Source: Alphaproteobacteria bacterium
GTDB taxonomy: Bacteria; Pseudomonadota; Alphaproteobacteria; RF32; CAG-239
Direction of reading: 5' to 3'
NCBI GenBank assembly: GCA_047975765.1
Contig: JBKEEF010000013.1
Coordinates: 67,727 to 131,726, forward strand
Length of the DNA stretch: 64,000 nucleotides
The notes below the pieces were generated by a model that worked only from the letters and a program-made list of their open reading frames with translations, did not search any database and had not been told where the DNA came from. The position numbers were made by a program, and so were the translations under genes. Every line of letters begins with the position of its first letter. Position 1 is the stretch's first letter. This document shows positions 4,441 through 35,762 of this stretch, in pieces.

Positions 4441-6489
4441 ATGTCAGAAATAGAAAATCAAGAATTTTATGACGCGGGCAGTAATGATGCTCCTTTAATC
4501 GATTCATTGGGTGCGAATGTCAAAAGACTCATTGAAAAAGGAAAAGTGCGTGGTTTTATCACAATTGAAGAACTAAACAAAACCTTGCCGTCTGAAAGAG
4601 AAACGTCTGAACAGATTGAAGACATTATATCTGAAATTTCAGATATGGGAATTAGTCTCATCTCCGAGTCTGATGCTGATAATTTTGAAGCAGAAGTGAC
4701 TGAAGAAGATGAAGAAGATGAAAGCGGTAACTTTGATGAAAAAGAACTAGGCCGCACAGACGACCCAGTAAGAATGTATCTGAAAGAAATGGGAACGGTT
4801 GAGCTTCTTTCTCGTGAGGGCGAAATTGCCATTGCTAAAAGAATTGAAGCTGGAAAAACAGTTATGATTGATGGACTTTGCGAAAGTCCAATGACACTTC
4901 GTGCAATCGCTTCATGGAAAAATGATTTAATTGAGGGCAAAGTTCAACTGCGTGATATCGTCGATTTAGAGATGATGTATGGTGCAGATGAAGAAGCTTT
5001 GGTGTATGACGAAGAAGAAAATTCAGTTGATGATTTAGAAAAAGTTGCAGCAGATCTTGAAAAAGAAGATAATCTTGATGAAGATGATGATATCTTGGAT
5101 AACGACATTGAATTAAGTGATGCCGATGAAGAAGATGATGAAGAAGATGAAACTGAAGTAACTGAAACTGAAGGTGAAAGCAGTGAAGATGGTGATGATG
5201 AAAATTCTGGTGCCAGAAATGTTGCTTCAATCTCTTCAATGGAAGAAGCTTTGTTCGAACCTGTTTTGGAAACTTTGAACAATATCGGCGGATATCATGA
5301 TACTTTGAAGAAAATTCAAATCCAAAGACTTGAAGCGCTTATCAAGGGAAAACCAGTTAACGCAGCAACTGAGAAAAAATATTTCCAAGTTAAAAGGGAT
5401 TTGGTAGAACTTTTGAGTTCAATTCACCTTAACTCAAACAGAATTCAACAACTTGTTGAGCAGTTGAATGATATCAATAAACGTTTGATGGGTTTTGAAG
5501 GAAAACTGCTTCGCTATGCAACATCTTGCAAAGTTAAACGTGAAGATTTCTTAGAGACATATCGTAAGTCTGAGTTGGATCCTAATTGGGTAGAAAGTCT
5601 TGCGAAGAAAAAAGATAAACATTGGAATATGTTTGTCGAAAAGCATGGAAAAGAAATTGTAGAACTCAGAGAAAGTATTGCTGAAATGGCATACGAATGT
5701 GGTCTACCAATCAGTGAATATCGCCGTATGGTTGAAACAATCAAAAAAGGTGAAAGAGAAGCTGAGCGTGCTAAAAAAGAAATGATTGAAGCAAACCTTC
5801 GTTTGGTGATTTCAATTGCTAAGAAATATACAAATCGTGGCTTGCAATTCTTAGATTTGATTCAAGAAGGTAATATCGGTTTGATGAAAGCCGTTGATAA
5901 ATTTGAATATCGTCGTGGTTATAAGTTCTCAACTTATGCAACTTGGTGGATTAGACAAGCGATTACTCGTTCAATTGCAGATCAAGCAAGAACAATTCGT
6001 ATCCCTGTCCATATGATTGAAACAATTAATAAACTTGTTAGAACTTCAAGACAAATGCTTTCAGAAATGGGCAGAGAACCAATTCCAGAAGAATTAGCAG
6101 AAAGACTTTCTATGCCTTTGGAAAAAGTTCGTAAAGTTATGAAAATTGCTAAAGAACCAGTGAGTTTGGAAGCACCAGTTGGTGATGAAGAAGATTCTTC
6201 TTTGGGAGATTTTATTGCTGATGAAAGTGCATTACAACCTCTTGATTCTGCAATCCATTCAAACTTGAAAGAAACTTGCACGAAGATTTTATCTTCTCTC
6301 ACGCCAAGAGAAGAAAGAGTGCTTCGTATGAGATTTGGTATTGGTATGAATACAGACCACACTTTGGAAGAAGTTGGACAACAATTTAGTGTGACACGTG
6401 AACGTATTCGTCAGATTGAAGCGAAGGCATTGCGTAAGCTAAAACACCCAAGCCGTTCTCGTAAACTTAGAAGTTTCTTGGATAATTAA
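4441..6489 (+). CDS. rpoD: RNA polymerase sigma-70 factor
   Basis: Region 1.1, a long acidic non-conserved insert, and regions 2-4 ([50 protein letters not shown]; [17 protein letters not shown]). Confidence 0.93.
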
Positions 6490-6492
6490 AAT

Positions 6493-6530
6493 AAAAAAGC
6501 CTCCGAAATTCGGAGGCTTTTTTATTTTTT
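6493..6530. terminator. rho-independent terminator hairpin (bidirectional)
   Basis: AAAAAAGCCTCCGAAATTCGGAGGCTTTTTTATTTTTT lies between rpoD and the convergent gene. Confidence 0.65.
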
Positions 6531-6535
6531 ATGTT

Positions 6536-8293
6536 TTAAGGACAGCTTGAACTAGAACAAGATGTCGCTTGATACGCAGGGGTTCCTGTAGAATATGAAT
6601 TTTTACAAATTACTGTATTTCCTGAACTTGGTGCATTTCCCGTTAATGATACAGAACCTGAGAACTGAGCAGTTCCACATAGATAAACAACAGCATTTGT
6701 TGATTTCGGAGTAACAACAGAGCTTCCGTATACTTTTGCATCACCTTGTACATAAAAACCTTTTCCTCCTATCACTGCATTTCCATATACTTCAGCATTA
6801 CCTTGTACATGTGCACTCTCATAAAGTTTTGCAGAACCGTGAACTTTTGCACTTCCACTTACTTCTGCATTACCAAGAATTGTTGCATTCTCATAAACTT
6901 CTCCAAGATATGTAATTCTGCCACAAAGAACTTCTGTTGTAGAACCATAACCTGTGATACCACATCCCATTGTCGCATTTCCGTATATTTTTGGGTTGTT
7001 TGTTGAACCAGCACTTCCAGACCCCCCTAATCCAGCACCAGCATAGATTTGGGCGTTACCATATGCTTCTCCTGCAATAGATATTCTTGCTGCCCAAGAT
7101 GTAGCAGAAGCTGCTCTATCATCACTAGGGTGATGTTTGTAGCCGTGGAATATTGCATTTCCATATACTTTTCCTGCGTAGATTTTTGATCCACCATAAA
7201 TTTTCGCATCACCATATACTTCAGCTGTGTTAGCAACTATTGTTACATTTCCGTAAGAGTCATCTCCATCACCAATTGGTCCGTTTGGTCCACCATAAAC
7301 TTGTGCATTTCCGTAGACTTTTGCCTCTCCAAACACAATTGCACAGCCATAACTATCACAGCCAACCCAAGAATTACCCTCTTGAGATAAGTTGCTTTCA
7401 CTTTCTACATAACCACCTAAATCACCATACTTAACATTGCCGAAGTTTTTAACAGCTTTAATTCTTTTGAATTTTTCTTTGTAATATTCATATGTTACTG
7501 GTGCAAAGTCATTTTGCATGATGACATATTTTTTAGTAGTGCTACAGCTACAAGTAGCCTCTGTTGCATTTGCAATTGTCCAGTCGCCAGCCACCCCACC
7601 AATTTCACTTGCACAGATTGCTGTTGTTTTTGTACAGGCAGCCTTACAACTTGTATATTTAGTACCTTGAGTATCTGTACAAGACTTTGCCCCTGTATCA
7701 CCGCCATTATCACACTTCATAAAAGTAGTATTACATGAACAAGAAGCAAATTTATCTTTTCCATCATTACAAACAGTTCCAACACCAATTTGATCGCTTG
7801 AACAAACATCATATCCAGTAGGACATGAACAAGTGTCATAGAGTATTTTAAGTGAACTATTAGGACCACCATCAGGATTGTTATTACATTGGTTTCCAGT
7901 TAATTGTTTTGGAGAAGTACAAGTGAGGGAACTCCATTTATAGGTGCTTTCATTACATCCACAATTTTCATATTTTCCACCGCATTGCTCACCTGTTAAA
8001 CTTTTTCCGCCTGTACAATTTGTAGCATCATATTTAAATTTTGCATCACAAGCACACGTTTTTCCATAAGTAGGATCCGTTGGGCAAATATCTTTTAGGG
8101 CTTTTCCCTGAGCAGTGCAATCCTTGCTCGTATATTTATAACCACCAAGTTGACAAGGTTTTTGGTTGCCAACTGTTGCAGGGGTATCCTCTTTGTCAAT
8201 AAACCAAACACGCGCATACGAATTATCTATGTTGATGAATGTTAAAATAAAGAGAGAAAATATCCCTAAAATAAAAATATAGCGTTTTTTCAT
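6536..8293 (-). CDS. secreted cysteine-rich protein with C-terminal hexapeptide (YGNA-type) beta-solenoid-like repeats
   Basis: Signal peptide MKKRYIFILGIFSLFILTFINIDNSYA. The N-terminal half is rich in Cys, Thr and Gly. The C-terminal half has a 6-residue periodicity (AKVHGS AKLYES AHVQGN AEVYGN AVIGGK). Confidence 0.6.
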   Translation of the reverse strand: MKKRYIFILGIFSLFILTFINIDNSYARVWFIDKEDTPATVGNQKPCQLGGYKYTSKDCTAQGKALKDICPTDPTYGKTCACDAKFKYDATNCTGGKSLTGEQCGGKYENCGCNESTYKWSSLTCTSPKQLTGNQCNNNPDGGPNSSLKILYDTCSCPTGYDVCSSDQIGVGTVCNDGKDKFASCSCNTTFMKCDNGGDTGAKSCTDTQGTKYTSCKAACTKTTAICASEIGGVAGDWTIANATEATCSCSTTKKYVIMQNDFAPVTYEYYKEKFKRIKAVKNFGNVKYGDLGGYVESESNLSQEGNSWVGCDSYGCAIVFGEAKVYGNAQVYGGPNGPIGDGDDSYGNVTIVANTAEVYGDAKIYGGSKIYAGKVYGNAIFHGYKHHPSDDRAASATSWAARISIAGEAYGNAQIYAGAGLGGSGSAGSTNNPKIYGNATMGCGITGYGSTTEVLCGRITYLGEVYENATILGNAEVSGSAKVHGSAKLYESAHVQGNAEVYGNAVIGGKGFYVQGDAKVYGSSVVTPKSTNAVVYLCGTAQFSGSVSLTGNAPSSGNTVICKNSYSTGTPAYQATSCSSSSCP

Positions 8294-8413
8294 GATGGTA
8301 TTCCTTAGTGATTTAAGAATCTAAAAAAATAATACTCATTCAACCAATTATATAATAAATATTTTTTTACTACAATAAAAATTAAATATGAGATTATGAA
8401 GATTTTATAATCA

Positions 8414-8451
8414 TAAAAAAAAAGCCTCTGAAATTCGGAGGCTTTTTTTTA
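8414..8451. terminator. rho-independent terminator hairpin, near-identical to the one at 6493
   Basis: AAAAAAAAAGCCTCTGAAATTCGGAGGCTTTTTTTT. It shares the stem and the GAAATTC loop with the hairpin at 6493-6530. Confidence 0.6.
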
Positions 8452-8463
8452 TTCAAATTAGAC

Positions 8464-9624
8464 TTATGCAGCTTTTGTTTTTGATGCAAAAGAGTTCAAG
8501 CATTCAATGATGTAGTCTTGTTCTTCTTTTGTCAAATATGGGTGCATAGGAATGCTCAAAACGCGGCTTGCCATTTTTTCGCAAACTGGAAGTGAACGTT
8601 TGTTGTAGTGTGTGTATGCAGTTTGAGTGTGAACTGGTCTTGGATAGAAGTTAGCAAAAGGAATGCCACACTCTTTCAAGTGATCTTGAAGTTCAGCTCT
8701 GTTGTCAACCAAGATTGTGTAAATTGCATAAGCAGAAACACAGTTATCCAAAACTTTTTGTGTTTGGAAAGCAGAGCTTAAATTTGCTTCATAATATCTA
8801 CCAATTTTTTCACGGTTAGAAAGTTCTTCATCAAATACTTTCAATTTTTCAATTAAAACGGCAGCTTGGAAACTGTCCATACGAGCTGTCATGCCGAGAC
8901 GCGCATTGTCATATTTGTCTTCAGGGTTTGAACCATGAACACGGCAAGATTTGATGATTGAAAGTTCTTCATCACAGTTTGTGAAAACAGCACCACCGTC
9001 ACCATAGCAACCCAAAGGTTTTGTAGGGTAAAAACTTGTTGCAGTAATATCTGCAATGTCAGCATGTCCAACTTTTTTAGAATTATAAACTGCACCGTAG
9101 CTTTGAGCCGCATCAGACATATATTTCATGTTGTTTTCTTTAGCAATTGCATGAATTTCTGAATAGTTTGCAGGGTTTCCAAAAATATCAACAGAAATGA
9201 TTGCTTTTGGAGTAAGTTTACCTTCGCTCTTAACTTCTGCAATTGCCTTTTTGAGGTCAGCAACATCCATATTCCATGTTTCTGGATTAGAGTCAACAAA
9301 CACAGGTGTTGCACCTAAGAAAGCTACAGCTTCAGCTGTTGCAACAAAAGTGAAAGATGGAACAAACACAGCATCACCAGCTTTTACGTCCCAAGCCATC
9401 AAGCCAAGAATGAGTGCATCTGTACCAGAAGAACAAGTTGCACAATGCTTAACACCAGAATAGTTGGCAAGTTGTGTGTCGAGTTCTGCACATTCAGGAC
9501 CTTGAGCATATCCACCATGGTTCAAGATTTTTTCAAAAGCTTTCAAGAATTTTTCTTGTCCGATAACTTTTTGATTTGATGGAATGTCAAAAAGACCAAT
9601 TGGTTTTGAAGGTTTGTTTGTCAT
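8464..9624 (-). CDS. DegT/DnrJ/EryC1/StrS family PLP-dependent sugar aminotransferase
   Basis: 386 aa with family-typical N-terminal motifs and spacing (GPECAELDTQLANYSGVKHCATCSSGTDALILGL; DVFGNPANY). Confidence 0.8.
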   Translation of the reverse strand: MTNKPSKPIGLFDIPSNQKVIGQEKFLKAFEKILNHGGYAQGPECAELDTQLANYSGVKHCATCSSGTDALILGLMAWDVKAGDAVFVPSFTFVATAEAVAFLGATPVFVDSNPETWNMDVADLKKAIAEVKSEGKLTPKAIISVDIFGNPANYSEIHAIAKENNMKYMSDAAQSYGAVYNSKKVGHADIADITATSFYPTKPLGCYGDGGAVFTNCDEELSIIKSCRVHGSNPEDKYDNARLGMTARMDSFQAAVLIEKLKVFDEELSNREKIGRYYEANLSSAFQTQKVLDNCVSAYAIYTILVDNRAELQDHLKECGIPFANFYPRPVHTQTAYTHYNKRSLPVCEKMASRVLSIPMHPYLTKEEQDYIIECLNSFASKTKAA

Positions 9625-30037: not shown

Positions 30038-30114
30038 GGGGGTGTAGCTCAGTTGGTTAGAGTGCTTGCCTGTCACGCAAGAAGTCGCGGGTTCGAGCCC
30101 CGTCACTCCCGCCA
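30038..30114 (+). tRNA. tRNA-Asp (anticodon GTC)
   Basis: 77-nt cloverleaf folded by hand: GGGGGTG acceptor stem, anticodon loop CTGTCAC, T-loop TTCGAGC, encoded CCA. Confidence 0.9.
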
Positions 30115-33178: not shown

Positions 33179-33631
33179 CTAAGAGCCAGAGCCATCGCCA
33201 AAGCCATCGCCAAAGCCAGAGCCATCGCCAAAGCCATCGCCAAAGCCAGAGCCAGAGCCAAAGCCAGAGCCATCGCCAAAGCCATCGCCAAAGCCAGAGC
33301 CAGAGCCAAAGCCAGAGCCAGAGCCAAAGCCATTGCCATCGCCATTGCCATAGCCATCGCCAGAGCCATTGCCAGAGCCATTGCCATCGCCAAAGCCAGA
33401 GCCAGAGCCAAAGCCAAAGCCAGAGCCAGAGCCAGAGCCATTGCCATTGCCAAAGCCAGAGCCAGAGCCAAAGCCATCGCCAGAGCCATTGCCATTGCCA
33501 GAGCCATTGCCATTGCCAAAGCCAGAGCCAGAGCCAAAGCCATCGCCAGAGCCATTGCCATTGCCAAAGCCAGAGCCAGAGCCAAAGCCATCGCCAGAGC
33601 CAAGACCTAGATATTCATCTTCTTTATTCAT
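33179..33631 (-). CDS. glycine-rich (GSG/GNG/GDG/GFG) low-complexity protein
   Basis: ATG with an AAGGA RBS. 150 aa, almost entirely G-x repeats, encoded by a hexanucleotide repeat. An alternative MALAMAL frame (33145-33603) is also open but lacks an RBS. Confidence 0.4.
33180..33600. repeat. hexanucleotide-based tandem repeat (GCCAAA/GCCAGA/GCCATC/GCCATT units), about 420 bp
   Basis: Direct inspection. Three of the six frames are open across it. Confidence 0.85.
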
Positions 33632-34139: not shown

Positions 34140-34477
34140 TCTGGGACGTTATCTATATTTGCTTGAGCTTCTTTTGTTACTGGGAGCACCTCTATAACGT
34201 TAGGTAGATATATCCCTCCTTCATCTTTTATGGTGACACAAAACTTACAATTTGAAGGGCTTTTAGTTCCGTAAACTGCTAATTCAGAAAGGCTCGCAGC
34301 TCCAGACCAATACCATATACGACGTGCATTTTGTAATATACATTCTCCTTTTTCTAGTTGTTTGATATTGCCATACCAAACACCAGCAGAATATGTTCTT
34401 ATAATGTATTTTTTTGTAGAATTTGTTTCAGTCATTGTTATTTTCCTTAAAAAAATTAGAATATTTTTCTGAACCAT
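34127..34477 (-). CDS. hypothetical phage protein
   Basis: 116-aa ORF. Confidence 0.35.
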   Translation of the reverse strand: MVQKNILIFLRKITMTETNSTKKYIIRTYSAGVWYGNIKQLEKGECILQNARRIWYWSGAASLSELAVYGTKSPSNCKFCVTIKDEGGIYLPNVIEVLPVTKEAQANIDNVPEWRA

Positions 34478-35762
34478 ATTGACCTTTAGTCAATTCGATT
34501 ACGATTGCAGGTGTAATCTCCTTTAGAGATTTTATTTTTTCTGAATTATTACTACAGAAGTTCTTTATTCCAAATTCGCAAGCACCAGTTATAATTCTAT
34601 AACTTTCAATCGCATCTTTTAGAGATATCTTTGTCTTGAGATTCCATTTTTTGAATTTACTAGTATCTTTTGAAGATATCTTGTAAATCAAACTTTCTTT
34701 TGCTTGCTTGATTGTTTCGCCGTGGGAATAAACATTTCCATCAGTGACGATGTAAGTTAATTTTCCTCTAACTTTAACCTTCATAGCATTTTTAAGCTGC
34801 TTAACGACTTCGCAGAAAATTCCATCAATTTTACGGTATTTTCCATTTTGCCAAGAAAATTCAATATTGATTGTTATGCTTGCTCTTATTCTTGAAGATA
34901 TATTGTATGTAGGTTTATTTACTTTAACTTTTTTATGTAGATCACTTCTGAGGTCTAGATAACCACCAACAGTTGGATTAAATCCCTCTGGAATTGATGT
35001 CAAACTACTGAGGTCTAGATAACCACCAACAGTTGGATTAAATCCCTCTGGAATTGATGTCAAACTTCTGAGGTATAGAGAACCGCCAACAGTTGGATTA
35101 AATCCCTCTGGAATTGATGTCAAACTTCTGAGGTCTAGATAATCACCAACAGTTGGATTAAATCCCTCTGGAATTGATGTCAAACTACTGAGGTCTAGAG
35201 AACCGCCAACAGTTGGATTAAATCCCTCTGGAATTGATGTCAAACTACTGAGGTCTAGAGAACCGCCAACAGTTGGATTAAATCCCTCTGGAATTGATGT
35301 CAAACTTCTGAGGTATAGAGAACCGCCAACAGTTGGATTAAATCCCTCTGGAATTGATGTCAAACTACCGAGGTATAGAGAACCGCCAACAGTTGGATTA
35401 AATCCCTCTGGAATTGATGTCAAACTTCTGAGGTATAGAGAACCGCCAACAGTTGGATTAAATCCCTCTGGAATTGATGTCAAACTTCTGAGGTCTAGAG
35501 AACCGCCAACAGTTGGATTAAATCCCTCTGGAATTGATGTCAAACTACTGAGGTCTAGAGAACCGCCAACAGTTGGATTAAATCCCTCTGGAATTGATGT
35601 CAAACTACCGAGGTATAGAGAACCGCCAACAGTTGGATTAAATCCCTCTGGAATTGATGTCAAACTACTGAGGTCTAGAGAACCGCCAACAGTTTCTTTA
35701 CCGAAAAATTGGTCTTCCGTTAAATTGTATTTTTTACAAAAATTTTGCTGTTCTTTATTCAT
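34428..35762 (-). CDS. tandem-repeat protein with 12.5 x 20-aa LRR-like repeats (..SL[D/Y]L[S/R/G]SLTSIPEGFNPTVGG..)
   Basis: A 60-bp near-perfect DNA repeat array translates into 20-aa units. The C-terminal 180 aa is non-repetitive. Confidence 0.6.
   Translation of the reverse strand: MNKEQQNFCKKYNLTEDQFFGKETVGGSLDLSSLTSIPEGFNPTVGGSLYLGSLTSIPEGFNPTVGGSLDLSSLTSIPEGFNPTVGGSLDLRSLTSIPEGFNPTVGGSLYLRSLTSIPEGFNPTVGGSLYLGSLTSIPEGFNPTVGGSLYLRSLTSIPEGFNPTVGGSLDLSSLTSIPEGFNPTVGGSLDLSSLTSIPEGFNPTVGDYLDLRSLTSIPEGFNPTVGGSLYLRSLTSIPEGFNPTVGGYLDLSSLTSIPEGFNPTVGGYLDLRSDLHKKVKVNKPTYNISSRIRASITINIEFSWQNGKYRKIDGIFCEVVKQLKNAMKVKVRGKLTYIVTDGNVYSHGETIKQAKESLIYKISSKDTSKFKKWNLKTKISLKDAIESYRIITGACEFGIKNFCSNNSEKIKSLKEITPAIVIELTKGQYGSEKYSNFFKENNND
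34941..35700. repeat. 60-bp tandem repeat array, about 12.5 copies, coding
   Basis: Units such as AATCCCTCTGGAATTGATGTCAAACTTCTGAGGTATAGAGAACCGCCAACAGTTGGATTA differ at only a few positions. Confidence 0.9.

Follow-up and report, generated by a model that had tools for sequence, protein, structure and literature searches.

Why should a single minus-strand gene between rpoD and a gene of the DegT/DnrJ/EryC1 aminotransferase family be enclosed by two almost identical hairpins, and what does this gene encode? The question arises in the 64-kb window analyzed here, which is the whole stretch of 64,000 nucleotides taken from an alphaproteobacterial contig. An earlier description of this window from its sequence (the original prediction) had listed an open reading frame (ORF) of 585 amino acids (aa) with rpoD and DegT as neighbors, and this arrangement was confirmed. 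The encoded protein is identical to ACK5N8_06465, which is annotated as a hypothetical protein in an NCBI metagenome-assembled genome (MAG) labelled 'Alphaproteobacteria bacterium'. We assign a probability of about 0.6 to the reading that it is a Sec-exported, disulfide-rich binding or surface protein of two modules, that its gene forms a terminator-bounded unit and that the twin hairpins go back to duplication or recombination when this unit was installed.

The first module of the protein lies directly behind the leader peptide. Residues 28–218, here called the N-module, consist of five repeats, for which the repeat alignments give the pattern ..C..[ST]GxxC..Y..CxC. In an alignment of 33 sequences 22 Cys residues of the module are invariant or nearly invariant and are common to the protein and its 32 relatives. 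The original prediction had described the N-terminal half as rich in Cys, with about 40 of these residues. The richness holds and the number does not, as the protein contains 32 Cys (24 within aa 31–265 and 8 in the C-terminal part); it is also more than a compositional bias, since the alignments revealed an ordered series of five repeats in which the pattern of Cys is conserved. In an AlphaFold2 (AF2) model calculated with the 33-sequence alignment, the N-module appears as a chain of beta-hairpins with a predicted local distance difference test (pLDDT) score of 89.6. The module is predicted to form an elongated rod of disulfide-stapled beta-hairpins, and we read this rod as a stalk.

Searches of Pfam, NCBIfam and PHROGs gave zero matches in the N-module region, and Foldseek found no significant fold match for its model in PDB or BFVD (best E = 0.47). 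The weak top neighbors are EGF-like and TNF-receptor Cys-rich rods. With the ectodomains of Pvs25, TNFR1 and CD40 the N-module shares the array of small disulfide-stapled beta-hairpin units, predicted in our case. However, it has no sequence similarity to these rods, its Cys spacing (..C..GxxC..Y..CxC) differs and its origin is bacterial, and the likeness is a resemblance only and not membership. The N-module was previously undescribed and matches nothing in any library searched; it is defined here as a Cys-rich module outside all Pfam families, for which a rod-like fold is predicted with confidence. The family is defined by a leader, then (V/I)(Y/H)FI, then five ..C..GxxC..Y..CxC repeats. ACK5N8_06465 shows all of these and is the top match of the family profile (E = 1e-93).

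The N-terminus reads MKKRYIFILGIFSLFILTFINIDNSYA followed by RVW and comprises a basic n-region, a hydrophobic core of 16 residues and a small-x-small site (S-Y-A). Residues 2–22 were modelled as a helix by AF2, and in many family members a site of the A-x-A type is directly followed by (V/I)-(Y/H)-F-I. The signal peptide of the original prediction is supported by this reading, and the protein looks exported. Its Cys residues would then be expected to form disulfides. There is no lipobox Cys at position +1, the first 46 residues being free of Cys, and no Pfam domain of a C-terminal beta-barrel translocator, as known from type V autotransporters, was found in the protein.

A connector, common to ACK5N8_06465 and to those gut homologues which bear the C-terminal module, leads to the second module. 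This domain starts with the cap motif RIKAvKnFGnVKyGDLGGYvEsesNLSQeGNsWV, of which A280, F284, G293, G294, N301, L302 and W309 are near-invariant among 48 homologues. It continues with hexapeptide turns of the consensus A-x-V-Y-G-N. The 6-residue periodicity noticed before is real: over aa 310–560 the identity at lag 6 is 0.224, compared with 0.084 ± 0.017 in 2000 shuffled sequences (maximum 0.147; z ~8). The YdcK family model NF040481 of NCBIfam matches aa 274–555 with E = 9e-16 (profile positions 25–288 of 326), phmmer finds the crystal structure of Salmonella YdcK (PDB 2f9c) with E = 4.9e-8, and the phage families phrog_7964 and phrog_5070 match the domain with E = 5e-49 and E = 1e-46, respectively. 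The beta-helix or solenoid suspected for the C-terminal half was thereby recognized as a YdcK-type domain. Periodicity, cap residues and the phmmer match identify a hexapeptide beta-helix, whose left-handedness is assigned from the homology to YdcK and not from the AF2 model (pLDDT mostly 65–93 in this half). By tblastn the domain was also found in 64 phage records, labelled as hypothetical, 'polymer-forming cytoskeletal' or 'putative acyltransferase'. A match to bactofilin (PF04519) stayed below the gathering score (E = 0.3; 11.8 bits against 27.9).

YdcK proteins (NF040481; beta-solenoid repeat PF18836; PDB 2F9C/2PIG) show the same cap motif followed by hexapeptide turns, but they are single-domain proteins of ~326 aa, whereas ACK5N8_06465 has 585 aa including a leader and a 190-aa Cys-rich module. 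In addition, its domain is equipped with further Cys pairs and with a tail containing Cys, and it scores far under the curated cut-offs. Judged from its sequence, it is a divergent relative of YdcK at the domain level and not an equivalog. It belongs to a known, functionally uncharacterised family. The Cys pairs of the C-terminal half are C312/C317, C444/C457, C539/C563 and C579/C584, most of which are kept in the closest homologues; the tail is conserved as SYCSSKNCPQ among gut homologues. The extra pairs of the beta-helix domain would fit an oxidising, extracytoplasmic compartment. The YdcK/phage beta-helix domain thus also occurs in an apparently exported, disulfide-bearing form, which gives a hint at the use of this scaffold.

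To analyze the distribution of the N-module, its profile was searched exhaustively against 1.84 billion representative proteins; only 167 sequences with E ≤ 1e-3 and 81 with E ≤ 1e-10 were obtained. Members span 77–1470 aa. The module starts at residue 25–31, directly behind the leader, in the closest members and 40–260 residues in for the more distant ones. The few members with a taxon label stem from MAGs of Alphaproteobacteria ('Azospirillum sp.' KH081, Ca. Scatocola faecipullorum and an Alphaproteobacteria bacterium MAG). The family has so far been seen only in uncultured Alphaproteobacteria. A metagenome scan added 62 N-module loci in human-gut assemblies, several of them per contig. For most of 94 members scanned with Pfam no domain was recognized; the remainder include Lcl_C (4 members), a pectate-lyase-like adhesive domain and Big_13.

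The MAG of ACK5N8_06465 encodes four paralogues (P0002, P0003, P0014 and P0241), which have aa 1–220 in common with this protein at 56–76% identity, and all their C-termini are divergent. Over the N-module itself, P0002, P0003 and P0014 are 57–74% identical to it, and the first 32 residues of P0002 are the same. A Logan contig of the same strain ends inside the N-module, as expected because this segment is repeated among the paralogues. The converse was found in proteins P0004–P0020 of higher-GC gut bacteria, which share only aa ~217–585 (45–53% identity) and have other Cys-rich sequences in place of the N-module. Both modules are combined only in a few proteins: P0052, P0242, P0257, P0264 and a 605-aa protein of STF2_225, the closest relative. 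P0052 is co-linear over the full length (28% identity, E = 9e-40). The N-module marks a rare multigene family in which, in many members, the same leader and stalk are joined to different C-terminal heads. As a small exported family of poorly known uncultured Alphaproteobacteria, some of them from the human gut, it provides candidates for host- or particle-binding surface structures.

Some further features of the family were observed. A second Cys-rich repeat, KTCADGGYVAAIPSGQTCTTQVYEGLTCYKDCKA, is present in three copies in P0014 (aa ~222–330) and in one copy in P0052 (aa ~203–240) and appears to be another shuffled module of this family. The human-gut paralogues (L041–L102), of which there are several per contig, have near-identical leaders of the type MKKSVLMFSLLSGTALM..., in parallel to the identical leaders of ACK5N8_06465 and P0002. 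The gene for P0264, an N-module/YdcK-like protein of STF2_225 (L103, 2127–4325), lies downstream of a gene for a TraG/VirD4-type coupling protein.

The gene is bracketed by two hairpins, H1 and H2. Their 23-mers, AAGCCTCCGAAATTCGGAGGCTT at 6497–6519 and AAGCCTCTGAAATTCGGAGGCTT at 8422–8444, differ in one base, which agrees with the near-identical flanking hairpins reported originally. With up to 3 mismatches allowed, there is no third match in the window, where 0.01 would be expected by chance; the type can also be written as GCCTC[CT]GAAATTCGGAGGC or as GCCTNNGAA(A)ATTCNNAGGC. Each is made up of an A-run, a GC-rich stem of 7–9 bp with a short loop, and a T-run. H1 begins 8 nt past the stop codon of the ACK5N8_06465 gene and overlaps that of rpoD. 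H2 lies upstream of the ACK5N8_06465 gene, ~120 nt from its start codon and 14 nt past the stop codon of DegT. H1 folds with -25.1 kcal/mol on the plus strand and -25.6 kcal/mol on the minus strand (z about -7.3 to -7.9). For H2 the values are -20.1 and -16.6 kcal/mol, the C-to-T change giving an A.C mismatch on the minus strand. With a GC-rich stem-loop, a direct U-run and a position just past a stop codon, both have the features of intrinsic terminators. H1 is predicted to be a bidirectional terminator common to rpoD (plus strand) and the ACK5N8_06465 gene (minus strand) and H2 to be the terminator of DegT (minus strand). L035, an independent contig from Logan that belongs to the same strain, reproduced the junction of rpoD, H1 and the gene.

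In the GC-rich stem, the A-run and T-run, the stability on both strands and the position directly past a stop codon, the hairpins resemble ordinary bidirectional Rho-independent terminators between convergent genes. They differ from these in that two near-identical copies bracket one gene, and that the same is found around a homologue in another genome. This was seen in 678 complete ORFs from 99 fetched loci, in which a hairpin was sought within 300 nt on each side and a pair matching within 3 edits was counted as twins. Hairpins were present on both sides of 178 ORFs, and only 2 of these had twins, namely ACK5N8_06465 and P0052. The latter is located at a different locus in another genome, between mscL and aspS in three independent assemblies. 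It is bracketed by GCCTTAGAAAATTCTAAGGC and GCCTTAGAATTTCTAAGGC, the sole two copies in 13.4 kb. Both loci have the same geometry: a co-directional upstream gene, a hairpin, a promoter region of ~110–125 nt, the gene itself, a second hairpin and a convergent downstream gene. Of the 19 core positions of H1, 15 are the same in the P0052 hairpins, and the other four make up two compensatory base pairs. It is unusual that matched terminators recur around homologous genes, and the observation comprises two cases at present. Apparent twin hairpins at L034, a locus of the relative LBR70, were rejected as a third case, being the 94–145-nt direct repeats of a tRNA-linked island. The features of the locus are compiled below.

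Features of the locus between rpoD and the DegT-family gene. Positions refer to the window, aa numbers to ACK5N8_06465.
Feature	Position	Strand	Description
rpoD	4441–6489	plus	neighboring gene
Hairpin H1	6488–6528	both	core GCCTCCGAAATTCGGAGGC at 6499–6517, A-run before, T-run after; terminator scan and RNA fold
ACK5N8_06465 gene	6536–8293	minus	complete ORF, 585 aa; ORF reading
C-terminal tail, aa 556–585	6539–6628	minus	Cys563, Cys579, Cys584 (..SCSSSSCP)
YdcK-type left-handed beta-helix domain, aa 253–555	6629–7537	minus	cap motif and 6-residue turns
Connector, aa 219–252	7538–7639	minus	C..IGG.AGDW.....C.C.T.KK; tblastn/BLAST boundaries at aa 216–217
N-module, aa 28–218	7640–8212	minus	five Cys-rich repeats of ~30–40 aa each; alignments
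Sec-type signal peptide, aa 1–27	8213–8293	minus	read from the sequence; predicted cleavage between SYA and RVW
Putative sigma-70 promoter	8347–8375	minus	-10 TATAAT at 8347–8352, weak -35 TTGTAG at 8370–8375, spacer 17 nt
Upstream motif ATAAAATCTTCATAATCT	8391–8408	minus	directly downstream of H2 in gene orientation
Hairpin H2	8416–8450	both	core GCCTCTGAAATTCGGAGGC at 8424–8442; 23-mer at 8422–8444
DegT/DnrJ/EryC1 aminotransferase gene	8464–9624	minus	Pfam, E = 1e-99

The region between H2 and the start codon is presumably the promoter of the gene itself. Its TATAAT, for which the coordinates are those of the plus strand and which is read as the complement, aligns in position with TTGCAA..TATCAT or TATAAT of paralogues, and the promoter is also conserved upstream of P0242. 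The 18-nt motif ATAAAATCTTCATAATCT is also present in the 5' flank of P0241 from this genome and in that of P0264 from STF2_225; in the window this is the only exact copy, and there are no further copies beyond chance. H2, the motif and the promoter region together align with the 5' flank of P0241, where the hairpin GCCTCTGAAATTCAGGGGC follows the stop codon of thrS. Upstream of P0264 motif and promoter are conserved, without an adjacent hairpin. In two of the paralogues a tract of 13 A separates the -35 TTGCAA from the -10 TATCAT (P0241, L036 9931–9943; P0264, L103 4930–4942). These A13 tracts could support slipped-strand phase variation of those paralogues; the promoter of the ACK5N8_06465 gene has an A7 tract only.

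The gene order around rpoD was compared in two relatives, STF2_225 and LBR70, whose rpoD is 89% and 81% identical, respectively. The block of a 301-aa ORF, yqeY, dnaG and rpoD is syntenic in both. From the first base past rpoD the gene order differs: in STF2_225 lpxK and waaA follow, in LBR70 a tRNA and then an island with CoiA-like, HEPN and GmrSD genes. The rpoD terminator of STF2_225 is also a different hairpin, with only the outer stem in common with H1. Homologues of ACK5N8_06465 are found in unrelated gene contexts. The gene is therefore not conserved at the rpoD locus; conservation in all relatives, which would have spoken against the insertion originally proposed, was not observed. In this lineage, the region downstream of rpoD seems to act as a hot spot of insertion.

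In LBR70 (L034, 10178–14240, contig Ga0466714_074198) the tRNA stands directly downstream of rpoD and its 3' end is duplicated (10248, 10418). Direct repeats of 94–145 nt (10429, 14088) bracket the CoiA-like, HEPN RiboL-PSP and GmrSD genes, and the arrangement resembles a small defence island located at the att site of a tRNA. At the ACK5N8_06465 gene no such island was found, the nearest tRNAs of the window being located at 30038 and 49474. The LBR70 MAG carries the label 'Lactobacillaceae bacterium'. Considering its rpoD, the yqeY-dnaG-rpoD synteny and an N-module protein (P0127, P0256), this taxonomic label looks wrong.

According to the reading we prefer, the leader would be cleaved and residues 28–218 would fold into a rod of five Cys-rich beta-hairpin repeats, on which the YdcK-type left-handed beta-helix with its extra conserved Cys pairs would sit as a head. 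The two flanking hairpins would act as bidirectional Rho-independent terminators and insulate the gene from rpoD and DegT. Their near-identity most likely arose by local duplication or recombination at a terminator when a unit of hairpin, promoter and gene was installed, and the gene would behave as a terminator-bounded unit at a non-conserved locus. The analysis shows the homology of the domains, the distribution of the family, the anatomy of the terminators, the recurrent twin hairpins and the break in synteny, while export, disulfides, the binding function and the mode of insertion are inferred.

Several results weigh against this reading. On the side of the protein, the NF040481 score of 57.7 bits is far from the curated cut-off of 350 and that of PF18836 reaches 16.1 against 30. 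The full-length model has 2f9c as its first-ranked Foldseek match, yet this match is not significant (E = 0.37). Furthermore, no known sorting signal points to the cell surface, neither a lipobox Cys nor a Pfam beta-barrel. With respect to the arrival of the gene, no compositional sign of recent import was detected, as its GC content at third codon positions (GC3) of 0.19 falls inside the range of the window genes (0.16–0.27). No recombinase, transposase or integron feature was noticed among the adjoining ORFs (rpoD, the DegT-family gene, mlaA and mlaC). An empty site of rpoD, hairpin and DegT was not found in the two relatives retrieved by rpoD. In neither of them does DegT follow rpoD, and the difference extends beyond this one gene to the entire block downstream, so that a simple insertion at this point is not demonstrable. 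The cassette-like insertion of the original prediction is partly supported: the non-conserved locus and the twin hairpins, which recur around P0052, have stood, and the insertion between rpoD and DegT is unproven.

The remaining objections concern the hairpins, and they favor an explanation in which the twins are a coincidence: two independent terminators of the lineage-typical form 'AAAAAGCCTC...GAGGCTTTTT', one for rpoD and the ACK5N8_06465 gene, the other for DegT, which would say nothing on how the gene arrived. A scan of 185,579 species genomes, this MAG not among them, detected the exact 23-mer AAGCCTCYGAAATTCGGAGGCTT at 29 loci in 28 genomes (L004–L032), where ~0.03 were expected. The hosts belong to the Bacteroidota, Firmicutes, Chloroflexota, Actinomycetota and Alphaproteobacteria. 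The 23-mer is therefore a convergent, favored generic terminator sequence, and this raises the prior for coincidence. STF2_225 uses it at two unrelated convergent-gene junctions, one by terC and one between typA and an ORF similar to HAD hydrolases. Many terminators of the lineage begin with AAAAAGCCTC, and several have the same outer stem. Matches to Rfam were sub-threshold only, to the terminator parts of leader and small RNA models. Moreover, among the other family members examined on both flanks, twin hairpins were not seen at P0242 (L040), P0264 (L103) or the human-gut loci, so that the feature is not family-wide; for P0241 the downstream flank examined comprised 166 nt. Whether the hairpin is simply a generic terminator used genome-wide, which the original prediction had named as one finding that would refute it, has a divided answer: the type is generic, with 28 genomes, and there are only two copies in the window.

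Three observations nevertheless speak against coincidence. The two twin cases among 178 ORFs with hairpins on both sides are a homologous pair in different genomes and at different loci. The ~80 kb covered of this genome contain three hairpins of the H1/H2 type, and each of them adjoins an N-module gene. Finally, the likeness of H2 to the P0241 flank extends beyond the hairpin. The pairing is probably not coincidental, and independent origin of the two terminators retains a limited share of the probability. Matched terminators around homologous genes at different loci give a small clue that units of a single gene can recombine or insert at terminators. The finding is modest and lineage-restricted, and current understanding is not overturned by it.

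A more far-reaching interpretation would see in hairpin, promoter, gene and hairpin a mobile or exchangeable cassette with terminator palindromes as its ends, and in the N-module family an undescribed, possibly phase-variable repertoire of stalked surface proteins of uncultured Alphaproteobacteria, human-gut lineages among them. We consider it doubtful. Such a cassette might pass from one terminator to another through recombination at the hairpins and would not need a recombinase of its own. It might, for example, be excised as a circle and re-enter a similar terminator in a Campbell-type event; alternatively, a hairpin-recognising enzyme could act in trans. Palindromes at gene boundaries and single-gene units at variable loci are reminiscent of integron attC sites and of repetitive extragenic palindromic elements (REP/REPIN). 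In contrast to attC, H1 and H2 lack the core sites (RYYYAAC/GTTRRRY) as well as extrahelical bases, and unlike a promoterless integron cassette the gene is preceded by a promoter-like region; no integrase was found among the adjacent ORFs, the whole window not having been screened for integrases. REP/REPIN elements occur in hundreds of copies, whereas we found two copies per 64 kb (up to 3 mismatches) and two exact ones in the assembly of the closest relative. In long intergenic regions of STF2_225 (L033 12100–12460; L103 4380–4790), short repeated palindromic units were seen (GTCATATTCGGG...CCCGAATAT and GGGAATGACA), which resemble miniature inverted-repeat transposable elements.

A repertoire of this kind would have a parallel in the Vlp/Vsa-type families of Mycoplasma, in which the genes for variable surface proteins have a conserved 5' end. 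As in these multigene families, several paralogues per genome have a common promoter region, leader and N-terminal part and a variable remainder. However, the N-module proteins are not lipoproteins, their variable parts are whole domains instead of short repeats, and no switching was observed.

With regard to function, we infer that ACK5N8_06465 is probably an adhesin-like extracytoplasmic binding or surface protein, because of its architecture, the adhesin-type domains in relatives and the lack of catalytic or toxin signatures. The combination of a conserved leader and N-module with diverse C-termini, in several paralogues per genome, might also be expected of polymorphic toxins or effectors, with the N-module as trafficking domain and the variable C-termini as payloads, and one paralogue of a relative adjoins the gene for a TraG/VirD4-like coupling protein, as mentioned above. 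Yet none of the 94 members scanned with Pfam contains a toxin, nuclease, deaminase or peptidase domain and PADLOC gave no match. Directly downstream of the gene there is no small immunity-like ORF, but a terminator within 8 nt. The C-termini that can be recognized are of adhesin type (Lcl_C, pectate-lyase-like adhesive domain, Big_13, beta-helix). A toxin is improbable on these grounds.

It is also highly improbable that the hexapeptide domain is an enzyme, i.e. a trimeric LpxA-like periplasmic acyltransferase which works together with the sugar aminotransferase of the neighboring DegT gene. Relatives match Hexapep (PF00132), some are annotated as 'acetyltransferase (isoleucine patch superfamily)', and the gene does adjoin DegT. 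ACK5N8_06465 itself, however, has no Hexapep match at E ≤ 1, its adjacency to DegT is not kept in any relative or homologue context, and between the two genes stands a terminator. For the YdcK family, no function was found by a literature search. An acyl-CoA-dependent enzyme would not be expected in the periplasm. The ice-binding or antifreeze-like surface protein of the original prediction can practically be dismissed: all that speaks for it is the general observation that beta-solenoids occur among ice-binding proteins, whereas the Foldseek E-values for ice-binding proteins exceed 4, the repeat consensus A-x-V-Y-G-N contains no Thr-x-Thr ladder and the family occurs in gut metagenomes. Literature searches on Cys-rich proteins of gut Alphaproteobacteria and on duplicated terminators found nothing relevant.

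Elsewhere in the window, a 444-aa ORF on the minus strand (34428–35762) encodes ~13 tandem 20-aa repeats similar to leucine-rich repeats (LTSIPEGFNPTVGGSLYLRS), and the corresponding 60-nt units are 95–97% identical. An adjoining ORF on the same strand (33179–33631) encodes a Gly-rich repeat protein. The GC skew is reversed in the region around these two repeat ORFs, from ~28 to ~40 kb of the window.

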